A DNA stretch of 10,874 nt from a virus, in the UHGV virus genome UHGV-0126855. One strand, 5' to 3'. A model generated the notes under the pieces. That model was given only the letters and a program-made list of their open reading frames with translations, searched no databases and was not told where the DNA came from. Made by a program: the position numbers and the translations under genes. Position 1 is the first letter of the stretch. Every line of letters starts with the position of its first letter. Positions 17 through 10,874 of the stretch are shown piece after piece.

Positions 17-457
17 GTGATAACAGATGTCTGGAAATATAGGGGCAAATCCAGGAACCCAGAAATACTTCCAGATCACTGGATGTATTACGCGATGCTT
101 TTGTGTATCAGTTATGTTCTGAACAGGGTGATGGAGTTTATATTTCTGGCATCTTCAGACAGATATAAAAAATATCTCAGTAAGAGAGATGAGGCTAAAG
201 TAATTGTGGAGACTGAGCGCCTGTTCAATTCTCTGAGTATTCAGGAAAAAGAGGTTTTAGCATTTGCTGTTATGGCAAATAACAAAATCGTACTTAAGCA
301 CGGCGATCCGGTCGCTTTATCTCTTATGAGAAAAGGCCTTCTCCATCGCTCAGGTGTGACTTACAGCGCGTCAGGTAAAGAGAAATTTGTTATACCTGAC
401 GTCTGGTTCCATGAGTGTTATATGCGCTTTGCTGGTAAAGCTGATGAGCTAATTTAG
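17..457 (+). CDS. Hypothetical protein (146 aa), convergent with the N-like gene; start codon uncertain
   Basis: Complete ORF in the six-frame track, followed by a hairpin and T-run at 464-507. It begins at GTG 17 without a convincing SD, and the next in-frame Met is at nt 83. No motif recognised. Confidence 0.45.
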   Translation: MITDVWKYRGKSRNPEILPDHWMYYAMLLCISYVLNRVMEFIFLASSDRYKKYLSKRDEAKVIVETERLFNSLSIQEKEVLAFAVMANNKIVLKHGDPVALSLMRKGLLHRSGVTYSASGKEKFVIPDVWFHECYMRFAGKADELI

Positions 458-1060: not shown

Positions 1061-1123
1061 AGTATCACCGCTAGTGGTATTTATGTCAACACCGCTAGAG
1101 ATAATTCATCACCGCAGATGGTT
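1061..1123 (-). promoter_or_regulatory. pL promoter with oL1-oL2-oL3 operators (lambda-type)
   Basis: The plus strand carries tatcaccgctagtggta (1063-1079), caacaccgctagagata (1087-1103) and catcaccgcagatggtt (1107-1123), each within about 1 nt of lambda OL1/OL2/OL3 as I recall them. On the minus strand this gives -35 TTGACA (1084-1089) and -10 GATACT (1061-1066), transcribing leftward into the N-like gene. Confidence 0.8.
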
Positions 1124-1270: not shown

Positions 1271-1300
1271 AAAGAAAACCCGGCGCTGAGGCCGGGTTCT
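1271..1300 (-). terminator. Intrinsic terminator after the ParA-like gene (possibly bidirectional)
   Basis: Stem cccggc (1279-1284) / gccggg (1291-1296) with loop gctgag. The minus-strand RNA follows it with UUUUCUUU and the plus strand with ttcttgctt. It lies 4 nt beyond the ORF stop at 1304. Confidence 0.6.
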
Positions 1301-1303
1301 TGC

Positions 1304-2347
1304 TTAAAGAATACTTGCCAGATACTTAAGTTGTCTTTGATATCGAGTAACCGACTGGTTAACTTGTAACCTTTTCCCTTCACTTACTGTATGGAAGCGA
1401 CCAACTTTTAGCTGTGATATTGGTATGCTTTCAGCCCCACTAATTTGCCCGCTTGATACAAAATCATCTGTAACCACAATTGCTTTGCTAACATCTTCAT
1501 CGGCAAAGAGATGACTGTATTTTTCAGCGATTTTTACAGCTCTCTCTATGTACATTTGAGATGCGCGACCTGGTGTTGATGATTTACGGCTTTTTGAACC
1601 AGCCATTGTCATTACGATCGCTGCTACTTTTGGAGCCCCAAGCCCACCCGCACGCTCATTCCATAATACAAAATCTTTTGATTTATTTGCCAGCATTTCC
1701 ATTGTGAGATGAAGTGACTCAATTGAGTGTTCATCTACGCGTACAGGGATAATCAATGCCTCAGACGCGCACCATGCTAGGTGTGTTCCTCCAGCATAGA
1801 AGGGGCTTGTATCCATCAATAAAATTTCGCATTTTTTGTCTTTCGCTTCATCGTTCATTATTGCGCGAAGAGAATTTAATAGTGTTGATACTGCTTTTGG
1901 TTCTCCGCGAGATAGCGCTACTTGTAGTTGTTGATACATGCTTGATGGGAAAGCGAATAGCTCAGGATCACCTGGAATCGCATAACATGCCTTACCACCT
2001 TTAAAATCTGGGCAGAAATTACTTACTCGATATGAAATATCTTCTGGCTGCTCACCAAAAGCTGGACCCAGCATTTTTGGTGTCAGTGCATTAGCTATTG
2101 TTACAACCGGTTTTTCACCACGCAATAGTGTCTCCGTTAAATTACATTGCGGGCATAAGTCAGCCACTAATACGGAGTTACGTCGTGACAGCTCATAGGC
2201 GAGGTTGAATGTCATCGTGGACTTACCAACACCACCGCGCAGATTGGAAACTGCATAACTTTTGAATTTTGGCCCGCCATCTACGACGTAACCTTCCTCA
2301 ACAACTTGTGCATAGCGTGCCATTACTGACTCAACTACAGTGCTCAT
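1304..2347 (-). CDS. ParA/MinD/Soj-family P-loop ATPase (347 aa) with a ~100-aa uncharacterised C-terminal extension; orphan, with no ParB partner
   Basis: Deviant Walker A RGGVGKST (aa 37-44), A' motif VLVADLCPQCNLT (aa 59-71) and Walker B-like EILLMDTSP (aa 174-182). Strong SD AAGGAGG (plus-strand cctcct 2355-2360) sits 7 nt from ATG. It has its own promoter region and is flanked by terminators. Confidence 0.8.
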   Translation of the reverse strand: MSTVVESVMARYAQVVEEGYVVDGGPKFKSYAVSNLRGGVGKSTMTFNLAYELSRRNSVLVADLCPQCNLTETLLRGEKPVVTIANALTPKMLGPAFGEQPEDISYRVSNFCPDFKGGKACYAIPGDPELFAFPSSMYQQLQVALSRGEPKAVSTLLNSLRAIMNDEAKDKKCEILLMDTSPFYAGGTHLAWCASEALIIPVRVDEHSIESLHLTMEMLANKSKDFVLWNERAGGLGAPKVAAIVMTMAGSKSRKSSTPGRASQMYIERAVKIAEKYSHLFADEDVSKAIVVTDDFVSSGQISGAESIPISQLKVGRFHTVSEGKRLQVNQSVTRYQRQLKYLASIL

Positions 2348-2371
2348 ATGAATTCCTCCTTTAAATTTTGA

Positions 2372-2402
2372 ATATTAAAGCACCACAATGATGCAGGAGC
2401 AA
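2372..2402 (-). promoter_or_regulatory. Putative sigma-70 promoter for the ParA-like gene
   Basis: Minus strand reads TTGCTC (-35; plus 2397-2402), a 17-nt spacer, then TTTAAT (-10; plus 2374-2379). The -35 overlaps the promoter-proximal copy of the 19-bp repeat. Confidence 0.4.
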
Positions 2403-2476
2403 TAAAAAAGTGCAGGAGAATGTAAAATTAGCAGGTGAATTAAAAATGCGCAGGAGATGTGATGTTTTGCAGGTTG
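2392..2476. repeat. Five direct repeats of GCAGG(A/T)(G/T) at exact 19-bp phasing
   Basis: Core starts at 2393, 2412, 2431, 2450 and 2469 (gcaggag, gcaggag, gcaggtg, gcaggag, gcaggtt), separated by AT-rich spacers, upstream of the ParA-like gene. Confidence 0.7.
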
Positions 2477-2570
2477 ACTGAACAAATGCTGATGTATACC
2501 TCGTTTGTAGATAGGTATGTTAATTGCTATATAACATGCTTATGTTATTGATATTTATATATATTAATCA

Positions 2571-2598
2571 TAAAAAAAGGCCGCACTTCTGTGCGACC
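2571..2598 (-). terminator. Intrinsic terminator immediately downstream of cI
   Basis: Minus-strand RNA GGUCGCAC-AGAA-GUGCGGCC has an 8-bp stem with one G-U pair, followed by U7 (plus-strand A-run 2572-2578). It separates cI from the ParA-like gene. Confidence 0.65.
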
Positions 2599-2603
2599 TT
2601 TCA

Positions 2604-3320
<717 letters not shown>

Positions 3321-3327
3321 TTAAATC

Positions 3328-3393
3328 TATCACCGCAAGGGATAAACTTCTAACACCGTGCGTGTTGACTATTTTACCTCTAGCGGTGATAAT
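3328..3393. promoter_or_regulatory. oR3-oR2-oR1 operators with divergent pRM and pR
   Basis: tatcaccgcaagggata (3328-3344), taacaccgtgcgtgttg (3351-3367) and tacctctagcggtgata (3375-3391) match lambda OR3/OR2/OR1 closely. pR has -35 ttgact (3365-3370) and -10 gataat (3388-3393). The cro SD is taaggagg, followed by ATG 3418. Confidence 0.9.
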
Positions 3394-4084: not shown

Positions 4085-4231
4085 ATGACAAAACAACTCA
4101 GTCCTTACCAGGACAAAATTCACAAACACATACTACGTGATCGCTTCCTGTCCAGCTTCAAGCAGCCTGGTCGATTCCGGGCTGAGTTGGAAAAAGTGAA
4201 GCTGATGCAGAAGGAGAAAGGTCATGAGTAA
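4085..4231 (+). CDS. Small hypothetical protein (48 aa) between cII and the O-like gene
   Basis: ATG 4085 is preceded by SD aggag (4075-4079). The [51 protein letters not shown] overlaps the O-like start by 8 nt. It is absent from the ORF track (presumably below its length cutoff). Confidence 0.4.
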
Positions 4232-5123
4232 CATATCTAATCTAGCCGAAGCCAGAGAGGCCAGAAGGCTACAACAACCGCATCAAAGCAGCGGTAAGGG
4301 GTATGCCTTGCTGCACCGTAAAATTATGGATGTGCCGTTTTACAAGGACGCAGAAGCAGCGCATCTGTGGGTTCACTTAATCCTCAAAGCAAAGCATACG
4401 CCTGAGTATGTAATGACTGACGCAGGAGAAATTCTGGTAGGCAGAGGGAAGCTACTTGGCGGTAGAAACTCTCTGGCGTTTGAAACAGGACTCAAACCAG
4501 ATCGCGTTCAGTACCTGCTTAGAAAGTTCAAAAAACTCGGCATGATTGACTGGGTTTCACACGGTAAATTCTCAGTTTTCTCGGTAGAGAAATATGACGA
4601 TTATCAGTCAAATTTTGTACCAGCAGATTACCAGCAAATTACCACCTCAAAGCCAGCAATACCAATGCCTGCAAGCAATACTGTACCAGCAGATTACCAG
4701 CAAATTACCACAGATAAAGAATATAATAATATTATCTCTAATACTGACGTATTAGAGAGTGCCACAGCAGACAAAAAGTCTGACAAGAAAAAACCTTCCG
4801 TCAGCTGTCAGGATGTTGTCGATGCTTACCACGAAATCCTTCCTGAAGCGCCAAGAATCCGCGCACTGAATGACAAGCGTAAAAACCAGATCCGAACGTT
4901 CTGGCGCAAAGCCGGAGTGATAACCCGCCAGCTTGACGGGCATGGGTTCACGATGCAGGACTGGAGAAATTATTTGAGCTACGTAGGCGAAAATTGCCGA
5001 TGGATGTTCGAAGAACGCCCAAACCATCAACGCGGAACCGTCTGGCACAAAAAGGGATTTGATTTCCTGCTTAACGACAATACCTACCTGAAAGTTCGTG
5101 AGGGTGAACACGATGACCGATAA
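4224..5123 (+). CDS. O-like replication initiator (299 aa) with the origin embedded in its coding sequence
   Basis: It occupies the O position upstream of the helicase. SD aaggag (4211-4216) precedes ATG 4224. Internal iteron DNA encodes the repeated peptide [10 protein letters not shown]. The stop overlaps the helicase start. Confidence 0.7.
4616..4745. repeat. Putative replication origin: iterons plus an AT-rich tract
   Basis: Identical 30-bp direct repeats tgtaccagcagattaccagcaaattaccac lie at 4616-4645 and 4682-4711. Each holds two ~13-bp sub-iterons CCAGCA(G/A)ATTACC, with a degenerate copy ccagcaatacc between them. The AT-rich agataaagaatataataatattatctctaatact follows. Confidence 0.6.
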
Positions 5124-7578
5124 TTTTTATGCGCCGCCCCATAGCATCGAGGCAGAGCAGGCGGTGATTGGTGGATTGCTTCTGGATGATGACAGCAGTG
5201 AGCGCGTCCAGAAAGTTCTGGCGATGCTGAAGCCTGATTCATTTTACAGCCGACCACACAAAATCCTTTTCGAAGAAATAACCAGAATGCACCGGGAGCA
5301 AAAGCCAGTAGATGGCCTGACGCTTTTCGATGAACTGGAGCGTAAATCGTTAACGGCGTCTGTTGGCGGTTTTGCTTATATCTCTGAGATCGCAAAGAAC
5401 ACGCCAAGCGCAGCAAACATCGTTGCCTATGCAATGCAGGTTCGTGAAACCGCAATGGAACGCTACGCCATCAACCGCATGACTGAAGCGACGGAATTGC
5501 TCTATTCCCGCAACGGAATGACTGCAACGCAGAAGTACGAAGCTATTCAGGCGATTTTCACGCAACTGACAGATCATGCAAAAACCGGATCGCGTCGCGG
5601 CCTTCGTTCATTTGGTGAGGTCATGGAAGACTGGGTTAGCGACCTTGAGAAGCGATTTGACCCGTCAGGCGAACAACGAGGAATGAGCACAGGGATCCCA
5701 TCGCTGGACAGGATGCTGTCACCGAAAGGTCTGGTGAAAGGCTCTCTGTTTGTCATTGGCGCTCGCCCTAAGATGGGGAAAGCGCAACCGCTTAATTCAC
5801 GCATTTTGCTTGCTGATGGTTCATGGACAACATTTCGTGACGTATGTGTTGGAGATTCCCTAGCATCAGTGGATGGACAACCATCATTCGTGTCTGGAGT
5901 TTTTCCTCAAGGGGAGCGAGATATTTACCGAGTTACGTTCTCTGACGGAAGAACCGTTGATTGCGCGGATGATCATTTGTGGGAAATTCATAGTAACCGT
6001 ATTACCGGTGGCGTTGATGTTGTAGACACCTGCCGCCTACGGGACATGATGGAATGCGTTCGCTATCAAAGCCGCATTCATGTTCCTGGTATTAGCGGTG
6101 ACTTCGGATTGCCTGTTGATTTAGGGATTAGCCCATGGCTGTTAGGTGCGTTACTTGGCGATGGAAATCTTGCAGGTACGCCACGAATCAGCATGACGGA
6201 ACCATACATCATTGAGCGAGTAAGATCTGAAGTGGGTGACGATATTGAAGTCAGACATGTTTCTGGCTGCGATTACTCCCTATCTCACAAGTTTAGCCGC
6301 AAATTATCTCTTACGCGGGTTATGCAACGGATTGGTATCTACGGCCGGATGTCAGAGATTAAAATTATCCCGGATATTATTTTTTCTGCTGATAAGCAAA
6401 CTCGTATTGATGTTCTATGCGGATTACTTGAAACCGATGGTTGGGTTGAAGGAAATAATGCCCTGCGCTTTAGCTCGGCAAGCAAGTTCCTGTCAGATGG
6501 TGTAAAGCGGCTGGTGCATTCTCTTGGTGGCGTGTGTCGTATGACAACCAAACAGGAGCCGAAATTCAGTTATAAGGGAGAAATGCGCAAAGGTATGGAT
6601 GCCCATATTTGCGCAATCAGGTTGCCTGATGAGGTTCTATCACACATAAAATCTCCACGCCTGAAGCAAAAATTCACTGCAAAACGCATCAAAACAAGTG
6701 CGCCTGTTATCACGTCGGTTGAGTATATTGGACGTGAAGAGTGCATTTGCATCATGGTATCCCACGAGAGACATTTGTATGCAACTGACGGATACATTCT
6801 AACCCACAACACCACGCTATACAGCCAGATGGCAATCAACTGCGCAGTGTATGAGAAAAAGCCCGCTCTGATATTCAGCCTTGAAATGCCAGGTGATCAG
6901 ATACTGGAAAAACTGGTAGGGCAGAAGTCTGGTGTTAACCCGAATATTTTTTACCTTCCGGCGACAAATGACGCCGATGACGGCTATCAGGGTGATTACG
7001 ATGGTGACTTCAACAGGGCGATCGAAACAGCCAATCGCTTGAGTGAAATCGACATGCTTTACATCGACGACACGCCGGGATTATCTCTGGCTCAAATCGT
7101 CAGCGAAAGCCGTCGAATCAAGCGAGAAAAAGGATGTGTTGGCATGATTCTGGTCGATTACCTGACACTAATGACCGCTGAGAAGGCCGATCGCAACGAC
7201 CTTGCTTACGGCATGATCACCAAAGGACTGAAGAACCTTGCCAAAGAGCTTGATTGCGTTGTTGTGCTTCTGACGCAGCTTAACCGCGCACTGGAAAGCC
7301 GAACCAATAAACGCCCATTACCAAGTGACTCGCGCGATACAGGGCAGATTGAACAGGATTGCGATTATTGGGTGGGGATCCATCGTGAAGGTGCTTTTGA
7401 TGACAGTGTTCCACCTGGTGAAACCGAACTAATCCTTCGTCTCAATCGTCATGGCAATACCGGCACGGTGTATTGCATTCAGGCAAATGGCGCTATTTAT
7501 GACACAGACCAACAGTCTGCTGAAATGCGCCGCCGTGAACGCGAGGAGCCGCAGTCCAAGAAGAAAGGAGGATTCTGA
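5113..7578 (+). CDS. DnaB-family replicative helicase, intein-containing (alternative start GTG 5098)
   Basis: N-terminus PPHSIEAEQAVIGGLLLD and the C-terminal half (KPALIFSLEMPGDQ…LTQLNRALESR…) align with E. coli DnaB from memory. The Walker A GARPKMGK|TT is split by a 343-aa insertion. Excluding the insert, the protein is about 470 aa. Confidence 0.9.
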   Translation: MTDNFYAPPHSIEAEQAVIGGLLLDDDSSERVQKVLAMLKPDSFYSRPHKILFEEITRMHREQKPVDGLTLFDELERKSLTASVGGFAYISEIAKNTPSAANIVAYAMQVRETAMERYAINRMTEATELLYSRNGMTATQKYEAIQAIFTQLTDHAKTGSRRGLRSFGEVMEDWVSDLEKRFDPSGEQRGMSTGIPSLDRMLSPKGLVKGSLFVIGARPKMGKAQPLNSRILLADGSWTTFRDVCVGDSLASVDGQPSFVSGVFPQGERDIYRVTFSDGRTVDCADDHLWEIHSNRITGGVDVVDTCRLRDMMECVRYQSRIHVPGISGDFGLPVDLGISPWLLGALLGDGNLAGTPRISMTEPYIIERVRSEVGDDIEVRHVSGCDYSLSHKFSRKLSLTRVMQRIGIYGRMSEIKIIPDIIFSADKQTRIDVLCGLLETDGWVEGNNALRFSSASKFLSDGVKRLVHSLGGVCRMTTKQEPKFSYKGEMRKGMDAHICAIRLPDEVLSHIKSPRLKQKFTAKRIKTSAPVITSVEYIGREECICIMVSHERHLYATDGYILTHNTTLYSQMAINCAVYEKKPALIFSLEMPGDQILEKLVGQKSGVNPNIFYLPATNDADDGYQGDYDGDFNRAIETANRLSEIDMLYIDDTPGLSLAQIVSESRRIKREKGCVGMILVDYLTLMTAEKADRNDLAYGMITKGLKNLAKELDCVVVLLTQLNRALESRTNKRPLPSDSRDTGQIEQDCDYWVGIHREGAFDDSVPPGETELILRLNRHGNTGTVYCIQANGAIYDTDQQSAEMRRREREEPQSKKKGGF
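5782..6810 (+). other. Intein (~343 aa) with a LAGLIDADG homing endonuclease domain, inserted in the helicase P-loop
   Basis: The insert lies between GARPKMGK and TT(LYSQMAINCAV). It ends in THN followed by Thr +1 (nt 6802-6813). Two LAGLIDADG-type motifs are present: LLGALLGDGNL (aa 348-358) and LCGLLETDGWV (aa 440-450). The N-terminal boundary at Ala229 is inferred to within a few residues. Confidence 0.75.
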
Positions 7579-7892: not shown

Positions 7893-8129
7893 ATGAGCGA
7901 CCTATCATTGACCCAGCCAAAGCTAAAAGAATGTCCGTTTTGCGGCGGTAATGCTCGTCTGTGGGTTGAGGCCGGAATAAATATTGATGTGTGGGGCTAT
8001 GCAGAATGTGACCTCTGTGAAGCCAGGGGGGCATGGGCACCATCAGTTGCTGCGGCGGCTGAAAAATGGAACCGGAGAGCAGGAGATGAAGCAAACCTTT
8101 CTGCTTCGCAACGAAGCAATCAGAAATAA
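7893..8129 (+). CDS. Lar-family restriction-alleviation-like zinc-ribbon protein (about 78 aa)
   Basis: SD aaggag (7882-7887) sits 5 nt before ATG 7893. The CPFCGG…CDLC four-cysteine motif is typical of Lar-family proteins. The 3' end overlaps the ninB start out of frame. Confidence 0.5.
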   Translation: MSDLSLTQPKLKECPFCGGNARLWVEAGINIDVWGYAECDLCEARGAWAPSVAAAAEKWNRRAGDEANLSASQRSNQK

Positions 8130-8532
8130 CGCCATAGACGCCATTCTCTCACTACCCATCGACGACAAGTCACCCCACGAAGTCCACGTTAAAGAACCCA
8201 AGCGCAGCAAAGCGCAGAATGACCGTATGTGGCCGATGCTGAACGATGTTTCGCGTCAGGTGCTATGGCATGGTCAACGGCTGGCACCGGAAGACTGGAA
8301 AGACCTGTTCACTGCCCTGTGGCTTAAGACCAAAAAACTGGAGCAAAGAAGTGTGCCTGGTATCGACGGTGGCGTTGTCATGCTTGGCGTGCGTACCAGC
8401 AAAATGCGAAAGGCCAGCATGACTGAGCTTATCGAAATCATGTTCTGGTTCGGCTCAGAGCGCAACGTGCGGTGGAGTGATGACTCCCGGCGAGAGTATG
8501 AATGGTCACAACGAAAAGGGAAGGCTGCATGA
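8086..8532 (+). CDS. ninB: NinB (Orf) recombination protein (about 148 aa)
   Basis: Translation from the internal Met, MKQTFLLRNEAIRNNAIDAIL…[19 protein letters not shown], resembles lambda NinB (…WSDEARLALEWKARWGDRAA) from memory. Confidence 0.8.
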   Translation: MKQTFLLRNEAIRNNAIDAILSLPIDDKSPHEVHVKEPKRSKAQNDRMWPMLNDVSRQVLWHGQRLAPEDWKDLFTALWLKTKKLEQRSVPGIDGGVVMLGVRTSKMRKASMTELIEIMFWFGSERNVRWSDDSRREYEWSQRKGKAA

Positions 8533-9056
8533 CTATCAAATCAAATACGCCAGCACACGACAAGGACTGCTGGCAAACGCCGCTTTGGCTTTTTGATGCA
8601 CTGGATATTGAGTTTGGATTCTGGCTGGATTCGGCAGCGAGCGACAAAAATGCTCTGTGTGCTCACTGGCTAACTGAGGCCGACGACGCGCTCAATTCTG
8701 AGTGGGTAAGCCACGGTGCAATCTGGAATAACCCACCGTACAGCAATATCAGGCCGTGGGTGGAAAAAGCCGCTGAGCAGTGCATACAACAGCGACAGAC
8801 GGTAGTGATGCTTGTGCCAGAGGATATGTCAGTCGGATGGTTCAGCAAGGCTCTGGAGAGTGTCGACGAAGTTCGCATTATCACTGATGGACGGATTAAT
8901 TTTATCGAACCATCGACAGGGCTGGAGAAGAAGGGAAACAGCAAAGGCTCAATGCTGCTGATTTGGCGACCGTTCATCAGTCATCGACGGATGTTTACTA
9001 CCGTATCCAAAGCGGCATTGATGGCGATCGGGCAGGGCGTCAGGAGGGCGGCATGA
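8529..9056 (+). CDS. Phage Dam-like DNA N6-adenine methyltransferase (orphan, about 175 aa)
   Basis: Start ATG 8529 overlaps the ninB stop (ATGA). It carries the NPPY catalytic motif (…[10 protein letters not shown]…) typical of N6-adenine methyltransferases. No restriction enzyme partner is present. Confidence 0.75.
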
Positions 9057-9402: not shown

Positions 9403-10006
9403 ACCAGCGCGAAGACGATGTAAAAACGATGAATGTCGGGAATGGTTTCACCCTGCATTCGCCAATCAGTGGTGGTGCTCTCCAGAGTGTGGAACCAAGA
9501 TAGCACTCGAACGACGAAGCAAAGAACGCGAAAAAGCGGAAAAAGCAGCAGAGAAGAAACGACGACGAGAGGAGCAGAAACAGAAAGATAAACTTAAGAT
9601 TCGAAAACTCGCCTTAAAGCCCCGCAGTTACTGGATTAAACAAGCCCAACAAGCCGTAAACGCCTTCATCAGAGAAAGAGACCGCGACTTACCATGTATC
9701 TCGTGCGGAACGCTCACGTCTGCTCAGTGGGATGCCGGGCATTACCGGACAACTGCTGCGGCACCTCAACTCCGATTTGATGAACGCAATATTCACAAGC
9801 AATGCGTGGTGTGCAACCAGCACAAAAGCGGAAATCTCGTTCTGTATCGCGTCGAACTGATTAGCCGCATCGGGCAGGAAGCAGTAGACGAAATCGAATC
9901 AAACCATAACCGCCATCGCTGGACTGTCGAAGAGTGCAAGGCGATCAAGGCAGAGTACCAACAGAAACTCAAAGACCTGCGAAACAGCAGAAGTGAGGCC
10001 GCATGA
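9395..10006 (+). CDS. ninG: NinG (Rap) recombination-associated protein (203 aa)
   Basis: Its position, length and Cys-rich N-terminus ([10 protein letters not shown]…CSPECG) are consistent with lambda NinG. The start overlaps the ninF stop. Confidence 0.8.
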
Positions 10007-10209: not shown

Positions 10210-10874
10210 TGGCAGCAAATACCGAAATATTTGGGTAGTTGGCGATCTGCACGGATGCTACACGAACCTGATGAAAAAACTGGAGACGATAGGATTCGAC
10301 ACCAAAAAAGACCTTCTTATCTCGGTTGGCGATTTGGTCGATCGCGGTACAGAGAACGTTGAATGCCTGGAATTAATCACATTCCCCTGGTTCAGAGCTG
10401 TACGTGGAAACCATGAGCAAATGATGATTGATGGCTTATCAGAGCGTGGAAACGTTAATCACTGGCTGCTTAATGGCGGTGGCTGGTTCTTTAATCTCGA
10501 TTACGACAAAGAAATTCTGGCTAAAGCTCTTGCCCATAAAGCAGATGAACTTCCGTTAATCATCGAACTGGTGAGTAAAGGAAAAAAATATGTCATCTGC
10601 CACGCCGATTATCCTTGTGATAAATACGAGTTTGGAAAGCCAGTTGATCATCAGCAGGTAATCTGGAACCGCGAACGAATCAGCAACTCACAAGACGGGA
10701 TCGTAAAAGAAATCAAAGGAGCGGACACGTTCATCTTTGGTCATACGCCAGCAGTGAAACCACTCAAATTTGCCAACCAGATGTATATCGATACCGGCGC
10801 AGTGTTCTGCGGAAACCTCACATTGAACCGCCCCGGGTTTCCTGGAGAGTGTTTTATCTGTGAACTCAGGCTGC
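10187..10874 (+). CDS. Ser/Thr protein phosphatase (lambda PPase-like), 3' end not reached in window
   Basis: Translation [28 protein letters not shown]…GNHE… shows the calcineurin-like metallophosphatase motifs GDLHG, GDLVDRG and GNHE and is near-identical to lambda PPase as recalled. There is no in-frame stop before nt 10874. Confidence 0.85.

Follow-up and report, generated by a model that had tools for sequence, protein, structure and literature searches.

The ATPases of the ParA family are understood to work with a second component, an adaptor of the ParB type that sits on a centromere and drives the ATPase; in type Ib plasmids, the centromere is a repeat array that lies upstream of parA and overlaps its promoter. 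In lambda, the slot between cI and pL is occupied by rexAB, which is co-transcribed with cI. One orphan ParA protein, ParI, has an N-terminal HTH domain of the Xre type. It is encoded on a genomic island of Pseudomonas putida KT2440 by a gene of about 1.1 kb (PMC7324555) and causes the loss of IncP-7 plasmids, for which its Walker A motif is required (PMC9178275). Another orphan ParA-like protein without a ParB is encoded in the immunity region of the lambdoid prophage Gifsy-1 of Salmonella Typhimurium 14028s by STM14_3218, a gene of 840 bp (about 279 amino acids); its region is expressed steadily in the lysogen and is unaffected by mitomycin C, this three-gene region is needed for activation of RtcR, and when it is deleted, phage titres after induction are two- to four-fold higher (PMC9879122).

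The window analysed here, the whole stretch of 10,874 nucleotides of phage DNA, encodes an orphan ParA-like ATPase in company with SieB, N, cI, Cro, CII, an O-like protein, DnaB, NinB, Dam and NinG (Table 1). Translation of the open reading frame confirmed the predicted 347-amino-acid product, which matches Pfam AAA_31 (2.8e-13) and CbiA (1.4e-9) as well as PHROG_164, “ParA-like partition protein” (1.8e-42). The original prediction placed this gene in the rexAB slot, and the mapping agrees with it: pL (TTGACA-17-GATACT) spans 1089..1061, pR spans 3365..3393, and bases 1100-1305 match lambda 35628-35832. The gene takes the place of rexAB, with a cI of the lambda type on one side and pL on the other; in related phages of lambda immunity, this slot holds either rexAB or different genes. 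The slot and the Timm terminator are the same as in lambda and in phages with other cI-pL cargo (HK542, HK544, and CL707), whereas the protein is unrelated; in contrast to rexAB, the cargo described here is preceded by a terminator after cI and has a predicted promoter of its own.

Table 1. Features of the cI-pL segment, in coordinates of the 10.9-kb window
Feature	Position	Strand	Remarks
Intrinsic terminator directly 3′ of the cI stop	2575..2602	minus	12-pair stem followed by a T-run (terminator scan)
A/T-rich spacer, terminator to array	2476..2574		about 100 bp; short inverted repeats
Iteron array, five direct CCTGC cores	2393..2473	minus	cores exactly 19 bp apart
Predicted sigma-70-type promoter	2374..2402	minus	read by eye
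Shine-Dalgarno AGGAGG	2355..2360	minus	7 nt upstream of the ATG at 2347
Gene for orphan ATPase of predicted ParA/Soj fold	1304..2347	minus	ORF, 347 aa
Walker A RGGVGKST	2216-2239 (aa 37-44)		Arg37 at the signature-Lys position; P-loop Lys42
A′ motif VLVADLCPQCNLT	2135-2173 (aa 59-71)		contains Asp63
Walker B EILLMDTSP	1802-1828 (aa 174-182)		contains Asp179
Family-specific beta-hairpin FHTVSEGKRLQVN	1358-1396		
Intrinsic terminator, homologue of lambda Timm	1271..1300	minus	

The hairpin after cI folds with -21.0 kcal/mol (RNA of 2565-2612; z -6.2, none of 200 shuffles as good), and a near-identical hairpin (GGTCGCAGAGATGCGGCC and a T-run) precedes the array in other enteric loci of the family. 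It probably insulates the cassette from the pRM and pRE transcripts. The hairpin at the opposite end folds with -19.2 kcal/mol (RNA of 1262-1310; z -4.1) and is shared, by alignment, with phage HK542, in which it is annotated as Timm and accompanies different cargo. Homology to other lambda-immunity phages stops just past this hairpin, at the stop codon of the cargo, and the Timm terminator is part of the phage backbone, at the left junction of the cargo. The gene had been described as insulated by terminators on both sides; both structures do fold far better than their shuffled counterparts, but the downstream one is lambda Timm. The A/T-rich spacer holds short inverted repeats (I1-I8), such as 2511-2522 with 2532-2543. 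The predicted promoter consists of a -35 element TTGCTC (2402-2397), a 17-nt spacer, and an extended -10 element TGcTTTAAT (2382-2374); a consensus promoter scanner missed it, as the -35 element matches at three of six positions only. Its layout, TTG(A/C)TCCTGCA-N-GTGGTGnTTTAAT, is conserved in the enteric relatives, and both the promoter and the strong Shine-Dalgarno sequence of the original prediction can be read in the DNA. A predicted promoter, terminators, insertion into a phage backbone, and variable presence are, as far as sequence goes, the attributes of a prophage moron, and the 1.3-kb segment from the cI stop to Timm appears to be a self-contained, insulated cassette of this kind.

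With the type Ib ATPases (Soj, pSM19035 delta, TP228 ParF, and pB171 ParA), the protein shares a predicted ParA/Soj fold without an N-terminal HTH, the P-loop Lys, the A′ Asp, and the Walker B Asp, and its gene shares with theirs an upstream array of direct repeats that overlaps the promoter. By contrast, the prophage family lacks a ParB, ParG, or omega adaptor, has an Arg in place of the signature Lys, is about 100 amino acids longer by virtue of insertions, and resides in integrated prophages rather than plasmids. The Walker A motif had been taken for the deviant form of ParA; ParA motifs are indeed present, but the canonical signature Lys (KGGxxK[ST]) is absent and is replaced by Arg37. This Arg is invariant in all 42 aligned family members (mean column identity 69%), and RGG[VI]GK[ST] is present in 133 of the 143 retrieved relatives longer than 300 amino acids. 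According to a review table, the signature residue is Lys in ParA, Soj, MinD, and ParI, and Arg only in BcsQ (PMC9178275). In the same 42-sequence alignment, K42, D63, and D179 are invariant and S43 is nearly so, and the P-loop Lys and Ser/Thr, the A′ Asp, and the Walker B Asp align with the corresponding residues of Soj. The nucleotide-binding site (Lys42, Ser43, Asp63, and Asp179) is intact, and the Arg-for-Lys substitution in RGGVGK[ST] is the hallmark of a distinct, horizontally spread family. No published account of such a family was found in the literature on prophage or defence ParA-like proteins or on the ParA of RsoM1USA, or under the motif itself.

An AlphaFold2 model of the ATPase (pLDDT 88, pTM 0.90) has its best Foldseek matches in the PDB among Soj, McdA, ParA, and delta, with a probability of 1.00 and target-normalised TM-scores of 0.64-0.73 over about 325 columns, at a sequence identity to solved ParA proteins of only 14-20%. 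In hhalign, residues 30-255 align onto residues 4-192 of Soj, and a basic loop of the ATPase falls on the Soj segment that holds Arg189, the DNA-binding residue of Soj. The last 100 or so amino acids had been regarded as a C-terminal extension that could not be assigned; the model, the fold search, and hhalign instead give a continuous ParA fold, which rules out a separate C-terminal domain, and this part of the protein corresponds to the last third of the ParA/Soj fold, with small insertions. The extra length is distributed in the model over an N-terminal helix (residues 4-18), about 35 residues inserted between A′ and Walker B, and a disordered loop (residues 251-254) together with a beta-hairpin (residues 318-328). 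The absence of an N-terminal HTH holds, as none is detected by Pfam and the model has a single helix at this end. Neither a recognisable effector domain in the protein nor an evident membrane-targeting helix or partner in the model was found, and a search of the BFVD viral structures returned no close match.

The most distinctive element of the cassette is the iteron array, which lies within the region that the original prediction designated the gene's own promoter and was overlooked there. In gene-strand order, its cores read CCTGCA, CCTGCG, CCTGCT, CCTGCA, and CCTGCA, separated by T-rich spacers (plus-strand GCAGG starts at 2393, 2412, 2431, 2450, and 2469), and the final core (2397-2393) overlaps the -35 element and the promoter spacer. 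Tandem Repeats Finder reports a period of 19 at this site; four consecutive 19-bp pairs are observed against 0.03 expected by chance, and the 10.9-kb window contains no second cluster of this type. Upstream of family members, each of the 46 distinct regions examined, from Enterobacteria, Pseudomonas, Burkholderiales, and Sorangium, has an array of 4-12 cores, whereas clusters of at least four cores occur in only 9 of 3518 control pieces; copies at chromosomal sites outside prophages have the array as well. Of 247 gaps, 175 measure 19 bp and 55 measure 9 bp, and each whole phage genome has one array. The gene is strictly linked to the CCTGC array across phyla, but the reverse does not hold. About 11 sequence clusters contain arrays of this design, with CCTGC every 19 bp and T-rich spacers, but not the gene; among them are sites inside ORFs of Pseudomonas phi297-like phages and in the EaA gene of a Klebsiella phage, as well as three intergenic cases. 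One position in the phi297-like phages is the interval between the Rz-like and lipobox genes. Core conservation in the X2 cluster is not usable as a measure because the gene-less loci were chosen by requiring intact cores. A reading of the repeats as sigma-54 promoters was rejected by eye, as neither the spacing nor the GG/GC elements fit.

The family recurs in prophage accessory slots across bacterial phyla. It is rare in Escherichia coli, where the gene was found in 5 of 5426 complete genomes; the sole flank inspected in detail, that of H35, has it in the same cI-pL slot. A survey of homologues, which the original prediction had proposed, placed a repressor next to the gene in 25 of 50 family loci: a cI/LexA-like repressor is encoded on the same strand no more than two ORFs upstream in 20, and adjacent downstream on the opposite strand in another 5. 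These repressors are of unrelated types. In four loci, the upstream neighbour is the Q antiterminator; in the Ralstonia phage RsoM1USA and a Cupriavidus prophage, the gene is near int/att, the RsoM1USA copy standing near att with a DUF3800 gene and further cargo alongside; and some copies occupy chromosomal sites without a prophage. Among hosts as far apart as E. coli and Sorangium, the core does not vary, and no gene other than that of the ATPase is conserved.

Our preferred reading, which is put forward tentatively, is that this segment is a moron, insulated and probably under its own control, and that its ATPase would bind DNA and act in competition with other mobile elements instead of partitioning the prophage. 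By analogy with other ParA proteins, the ATPase may form ATP-dependent dimers or oligomers on DNA; it would recognise its own iterons and thereby repress its own promoter, and autorepression would keep its level in the lysogen steady and independent of cI. The benefit to the prophage would be competition with other mobile DNA, in the form of exclusion of incoming phages or, as for the orphan ParI, of destabilisation of plasmids or phage-plasmids, and the integrated prophage itself would not be partitioned by the ATPase. Occlusion of DNA, a transcriptional roadblock at CCTGCA arrays in other phages, and poisoning of foreign ParABS systems are possible effector steps. The reading is favoured by the missing partner gene, by the lack of close members on plasmids, by the placement beside repressors, after Q, or near att, by the terminators on both sides, and by the precedents of ParI and Gifsy-1; the lack of a recognisable effector domain and the rarity of the family in E. 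coli weigh against it. Autorepression is favoured by the position of the cores, on or next to the -35 element and in the promoter spacer, which is that of a repressor site. A binder that travels with its site is favoured because the hosts are diverse, the core is invariant, and the ATPase is the sole conserved gene; nevertheless, the binder is not settled by this argument, since similar arrays also occur without the gene, and direct repeats, in place of the dyad expected for a symmetric ParA sandwich dimer, argue against reading of the iterons by the ATPase. As for the exclusion, defence, or accessory function originally proposed, the orphan gene does reside in accessory slots, but defence is a proposal drawn from its position. 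A PADLOC-DB v2 scan gave no defence match, its only hit being PDC-M28B (E 1.1e-3) over 36 P-loop residues, and this negative scan rejects a known defence system.

The ParI and Gifsy-1 proteins share some features with this ATPase and differ from it in others. ParI is likewise an orphan encoded on an element acquired by horizontal transfer, but it has a canonical KGGVGKS (PMC9178275), and its termini, as given by PCR primers (MSPLAA... and ...VDLRL; PMC7324555), differ from those of the family. It was also absent from the 270 retrieved proteins, and on these two grounds it was set aside as a probable non-member of the family. The Gifsy-1 protein STM14_3218 is shorter, belongs to a three-gene region, and was not among the homologues retrieved here.

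It is tempting to extend the preferred reading, although with a low probability of being right, to a one-component ParA that reads sequence by itself, polymerises on the 19-bp CCTGCA iterons without a ParB, sets its own level, and seizes the arrays of other temperate phages, such as those between the Rz-like and lipobox genes of phi297-like phages or in the Klebsiella phage EaA gene, so that the outcome would be exclusion or incompatibility between phages. More generally, the family has lost its adaptor and changed the signature Lys while retaining a phased, centromere-like array on its own promoter, and prophages of several phyla carry it in slots usual for exclusion and defence genes. Should the ATPase itself read the array, it would locate specific DNA by a means new for ParA proteins. 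If phages or plasmids are excluded, the fold would be newly counted among defence or incompatibility factors, which would explain the scattered “ParA family protein” annotations beside prophage repressors. A single-gene cassette of 1.3 kb is straightforward to clone and test.

An alternative considered unlikely is tethering or partition by one protein, with the array as centromere and the ParA-like protein bound to both array and nucleoid, such that an extrachromosomal phage genome is segregated or retained, for example prior to integration, following excision, or as a carrier. The layout copies the type Ib par loci, with direct-repeat arrays upstream of parA that overlap the promoter; up to 12 cores exceed the need of a simple operator; there is exactly one array per genome; the nucleotide site is intact; and the basic loop aligns with the Arg189 segment of Soj. 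However, family members reside in integrated prophages or elsewhere in the chromosome, not on replicons that need segregation, and the partner that a ParABS system requires is missing. The orphan status claimed for the gene stands: there is no ParB in the window, and the 100 distinct neighbour ORFs collected at about 46 loci include no ParB_N, ribbon-helix-helix, or ParG family. A phased repeat array, which may or may not be a centromere, always lies upstream; no ATPase-activating adaptor is encoded nearby, and none is known for the family. Among 72,556 plasmids, no close member and no match above 32% identity was found. Aeromonas plasmids with a distant relative already have a ParA and ParG-type pair of their own, and the repeats near that relative look like replication iterons and were rejected as a CCTGC array. 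Neither a nearby ParB partner in a plasmid-prophage setting nor a confinement of homologues to partition operons, either of which would have spoken against the original prediction, was encountered. Its denial of a partition role was too firm in view of the centromere-like array upstream, which makes a cis-acting role in DNA positioning harder to dismiss.

The array may instead be read by another factor, of the host or of another phage, with the ATPase as regulated cargo whose target lies elsewhere; in one variant, the ATPase positions or inhibits a host structure, as do MinD, BcsQ, or FlhG. Arrays of the same design without the gene, including those in phages that lack a close ParA-like gene (phi297-like), are in line with this view, and BcsQ likewise has Arg at the signature position (PMC9178275). 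On the other hand, the core is invariant over several phyla, which would hardly have one host factor in common, no second conserved gene accompanies the array, and the model is without an evident membrane-targeting helix or partner, which leaves this explanation a slim chance.

A protein that acts on the phage's own regulatory region to modulate induction or the choice between lysis and lysogeny, for which RexA, with its reported DNA-binding role, is the comparison, would fit a gene that adjoins repressors of unrelated types in half of the loci, as well as the altered induced titres after deletion of the Gifsy-1 ParA-like region, but it is very improbable, as the cassette is also found after Q, near att, and at chromosomal sites without a prophage, and no other CCTGC array exists in the E. 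coli prophage or RsoM1USA. The idea of a second array as a target in the same phage was rejected as well, since RsoM1USA and the E. coli prophage (49 kb) both lack one.

In a low-GC subgroup of distant relatives without CCTGC (loci L087, L089, and L090), pairs of other short motifs stand 19 bp apart around the -35 element; co-variation of the operator in this subgroup was set aside as too weak to count as evidence. More distant ParA-like proteins of about 350 amino acids and the same overall architecture are encoded by phi297 (gp27), the Klebsiella phage ST11-VIM1phi8.2, and IncY elements. The IncY elements are P1-like phage-plasmids, and the P1 family has its own parAB. The three share with the family a CPQxN A′ motif and a C-terminal QVN...RYQ segment, but are only 24-27% identical to it, have a canonical NKGGVGKT, and have no CCTGC array upstream. 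In the Pseudomonas phage phi297 and the Klebsiella phage, the gene lies directly downstream of cI, and in the IncY phage-plasmids it lies in the icd/ant immunity region, after a gene for an HTH-domain protein.

The ATPase gene is preceded by an array that the original prediction had missed: between the cI terminator and the ATPase promoter, CCTGC occurs five times on the gene strand at intervals of exactly 19 bp, and the last core abuts the -35 element. The window holds four consecutive 19-bp CCTGC pairs, compared with 0.03 expected by chance. The gene has the predicted promoter of its own (-35 TTGCTC, 17-nt spacer, extended -10 TGcTTTAAT, as read from the sequence) and the strong Shine-Dalgarno sequence that had been proposed, AGGAGG, 7 nt 5′ of the ATG. 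An array of 4-12 cores was found in 46/46 distinct family upstream regions, which were taken from three genome loci and the 46 IMG/VR loci whose upstream sequence could be read. Among 3518 control pieces of these loci, just 9 contain a cluster of at least four cores. Across the family the core reads CCTGCA, the A at +5 being present in 73% of units; of 247 gaps between cores, 175 measure 19 bp and 55 measure 9 bp. The cores lie at or inside the core promoter, the array is also present upstream of gene copies at chromosomal sites without a prophage, and each whole phage genome checked contains one array only. Because the hosts span phyla, the core is unchanged and the ATPase is the sole constant companion gene, the simplest reading of these sequences would be that the ATPase recognizes the array directly and acts as the repressor of its own promoter.

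Similar arrays also occur without the gene. When IMG/VR was scanned for runs of four CCTGC cores spaced by 19 bp, at least 120 stretches matched; 80 of them were analysed and fell into 37 sequence clusters: eight are gene-linked, about 14 are plain tandem repeats, and about 11 resemble the iteron array but have no nearby ParA-like gene. Eight of these 11 are on the antisense strand of ORFs, and three are intergenic (L150, L208 and L225 type), one lying before a 38-codon ORF, one between two terminator-like hairpins and one without a downstream gene; the intergenic arrays may be cassettes whose gene has been lost or exchanged. One of the eight is in phage phi297 (L270), where four to five GCAGG cores at 19-bp spacing fill the interval that separates an Rz-like gene from a lipobox ORF, the real start of which is probably just after the array; this site is common to JBD44, DO4, Marin and other Pseudomonas phages, most of which lack a ParA-like gene. 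Another of the eight is inside a Klebsiella phage EaA gene. Since the gene-less loci were picked by their intact cores, core conservation among them is not readable as function. The ATPase could target such arrays in trans, or they could be cassette remnants, sites of other factors or partly chance, and their existence lowers our confidence in the ATPase as the sole binder. They count for the alternative that another factor binds the array, which we nevertheless consider unlikely. In the replication region of a Sodalis prophage (L010), six GCAGG cores packed into 35 bp of a 255-aa ORF are probably a coding repeat.

The window is the immunity region of a lambdoid prophage of lambda immunity, which, in addition to the features in the table, encodes Cro, CII, NinB, Dam and NinG. 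The ATPase ORF occupies the exact position of lambda rexAB, as originally predicted: lambda 35628-35832 matches window bases 1100-1305, and the remainder of the segment has no lambda match. The presence of a SieB-family ORF means that the region already has one exclusion gene. The terminators described on both sides of the gene are real by folding, after cI (-21.0 kcal/mol, z -6.2) and after the ATPase ORF (-19.2 kcal/mol, z -4.1), but the latter is the lambda Timm terminator and hence part of the phage backbone, not of the ATPase gene. HK542 and related lambda-immunity phages contain other genes in the slot, with the same Timm terminator at the end. This anatomy supports a moron-type cassette that is insulated, autonomous and made up of a single gene. 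The product, linked to a phased DNA array, is probably an active ATPase with a ParA fold. The hairpin that precedes the array (GGTCGCAGAGATGCGGCC followed by a run of T) is near-identical in the upstream regions of the enteric loci L016, L020-L022, L030, L031 and L058, where the ParA-like proteins are just 61-86% identical and the upstream repressor-sized ORFs vary in length; the hairpin may move together with the cassette, or it may be where recombination has its boundary. An A/T-rich stretch of 100 bp separates the cI terminator from the array and contains several short inverted repeats, such as 2511-2522 with 2532-2543.

Features of the window and of compared loci (L150, L208 and L225 in oriented coordinates)
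Locus	Feature	Coordinates	Strand	Remark
Window	SieB-like ORF	17-457	+	Pfam SieB, 1.8e-13; superinfection-exclusion family; just past N
Window	N	479-910	minus	
Window	pL	1089..1061		TTGACA-17-GATACT
Window	ATPase ORF	1304..2347	minus	347 aa
Window	CCTGC array	2393-2473		
Window	A/T-rich stretch	2476-2574		
Window	Hairpin before array	2575-2602		
Window	cI	2604-3317	minus	
Window	pR	3365..3393		
Window	O-like gene	4224-5123		
Window	11-bp tandem repeat blocks	4618-4644; 4684-4715		TACCAGCAAAT / TACCAGCAGAT
Window	DnaB-type replicative helicase	5098-7578	+	
L150	CCTGCA/19-bp array	9578-9658		Intergenic, no ATPase gene
L208	CCTGCA/19-bp array	4571-4632		Intergenic, no ATPase gene
L225	CCTGCA/19-bp array	10567-10628		Intergenic, no ATPase gene
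L270	GCAGG array	46788-46849		
L010	GCAGG cluster	7925-7959	minus	
L062	Cargo region	350-2914; 37103-38962		att-proximal end
L147	Two orphan ParA-like genes	7898-8911; 10001-11089		

All the ParA-type motifs originally named are present in the ATPase, which matches Pfam AAA_31 and CbiA, PHROG_164 "ParA-like partition protein" (1.8e-42) and, weakly, NCBIfam partition models. An AlphaFold2 model built with 42 homologues as input is confident (pLDDT 88, pTM 0.90), and its closest solved structures are Soj, McdA, ParA and pSM19035 delta. As these align over about 325 columns and residues 30-255 map to Soj 4-192 in a profile comparison, the model indicates one continuous ParA fold from end to end, without the C-terminal extension of about 100 aa that had been proposed. 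Four elements account for the extra length instead: a helix at the N terminus (aa 4-18), an insertion of about 35 residues located between A′ and Walker B, a loop that is disordered (aa 251-254) and a beta-hairpin (aa 318-328, FHTVSEGKRLQ). The ParA/MinD group is defined by a "signature" lysine in Walker A. The deviant Walker A motif is there as described, but arginine replaces this lysine; the arginine is invariant in the family alignment, and 133 of 143 longer relatives contain RGG[VI]GK[ST]. In the list of a recent review, BcsQ alone has arginine at this position (PMC9178275). In the alignment the P-loop Lys42, Asp63 and Asp179 do not vary and Ser43 hardly does, so that the nucleotide site is likely to be active.

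A search of 5.8 billion proteins identified 997 relatives, the best 120 of which have 344-380 aa (mostly 345-347) and 61-100% identity to the query; their named sources include E. coli, Pantoea, Franconibacter, Sodalis, Rugamonas, Chromobacterium, Cupriavidus, Pseudomonas and Sorangium, along with metagenome-assembled Verrucomicrobia and Bryobacteraceae genomes. When 1.84 billion cluster representatives were searched exhaustively without a profile, just 35 clusters scored below 1e-30, and the RGG motif is mostly retained in remoter full-length relatives (30-55% identity). By sequence, the family is compact and clearly distinct from ordinary ParAs. The gene is rare in E. coli (5/5426 complete genomes, all copies chromosomal) and occupies the same slot in the one flank looked at in detail. 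The sole cultured phage with a close copy is Ralstonia phage RsoM1USA (62% identity), in which the gene lies 400 bp from attP and adjoins a DUF3800 gene and other cargo. The att-proximal cargo region of this P2-like phage (L062) also contains PAAR, DUF4123 and immunity-52 protein genes. On the metagenomic contig L147, two different orphan ParA-like genes, one of the phi297 type (NKGGVGKS) and one of the RGGVGKS family, stand side by side with an IS transposase gene between them. The ParA fold and orphan ParAs are already known; a literature search found no description of the combination seen here, namely an arginine as signature residue, the absence of an adaptor protein, a 19-bp-phased CCTGCA array that is obligatory on the gene's own promoter, cross-phyla spread and residence in prophage accessory slots. 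The interest rests on this conserved gene-array module, which is easy to test.

The repressor-adjacent placement recurs in 25 of 50 loci and in distant relatives: a cI/LexA-type repressor is at most two ORFs upstream on the same strand in 20 loci and adjacent downstream on the opposite strand in five more. The upstream neighbor is a Q antiterminator in four loci of this survey, and the gene is near int/att in RsoM1USA and a Cupriavidus prophage. Relatives of 24-27% identity directly follow cI in Pseudomonas phage phi297 and a Klebsiella phage, and P1-like IncY phage-plasmids carry one of 24% in their icd/ant immunity region. Homologs do not lie in partition operons: no ParB, ribbon-helix-helix or ParG family member was found among 100 distinct neighbor ORFs of family loci, and no close family member on 72,556 plasmids. 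Together with the recurring placement beside repressors, this is the outcome that the original prediction called for. Small Aeromonas plasmids, which have a normal ParA and ParG-type pair as well, carry the closest plasmid relatives (32% identity); L144 (A. veronii, 5.9 kb) and L145 encode a 345-aa relative together with a 214-aa ParA and an 80-aa ParG-type partner, and the orphan takes up 17% of L144.

By analogy and slot context, the ATPase would most likely compete with other mobile DNA in the lysogen, because partitioning an integrated prophage has no point, related orphans are found alongside bona fide par systems, occupied slots typically house exclusion genes, and there are two precedents. 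ParI, likewise an orphan ParA, is encoded on a genomic island and expels IncP-7 plasmids in a manner that requires its Walker A motif (PMC9178275). The Gifsy-1 STM14_3218 region, which similarly has a ParA-like gene in a prophage immunity region, is steadily expressed and reduces phage yield (PMC9879122). Defence against phages in particular, one of the roles originally suggested, would be a more speculative reading: PADLOC gives a single hit, at the level of the P-loop (PDC-M28B, E 1e-3). One-protein tethering or partition by the ATPase is improbable for an integrated element, and modulation of the lysis-lysogeny switch, beside whose repressor the gene often lies, is more doubtful still; competition with other mobile DNA is the preferred reading.

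Two further features of the window concern replication. The repeat blocks of the O-like gene encode a duplicated 10-residue peptide and, by analogy with lambda, where origin iterons are embedded in the initiator gene, are probably origin iterons. The DnaB-type helicase is 826 aa long because of an intein-like insert that interrupts the DnaB_C domain and has a LAGLIDADG match at aa 439-485 (E 1.6e-4, below Pfam's cutoff); in an otherwise similar E. coli prophage (L003), DnaB is uninterrupted and has 478 aa.
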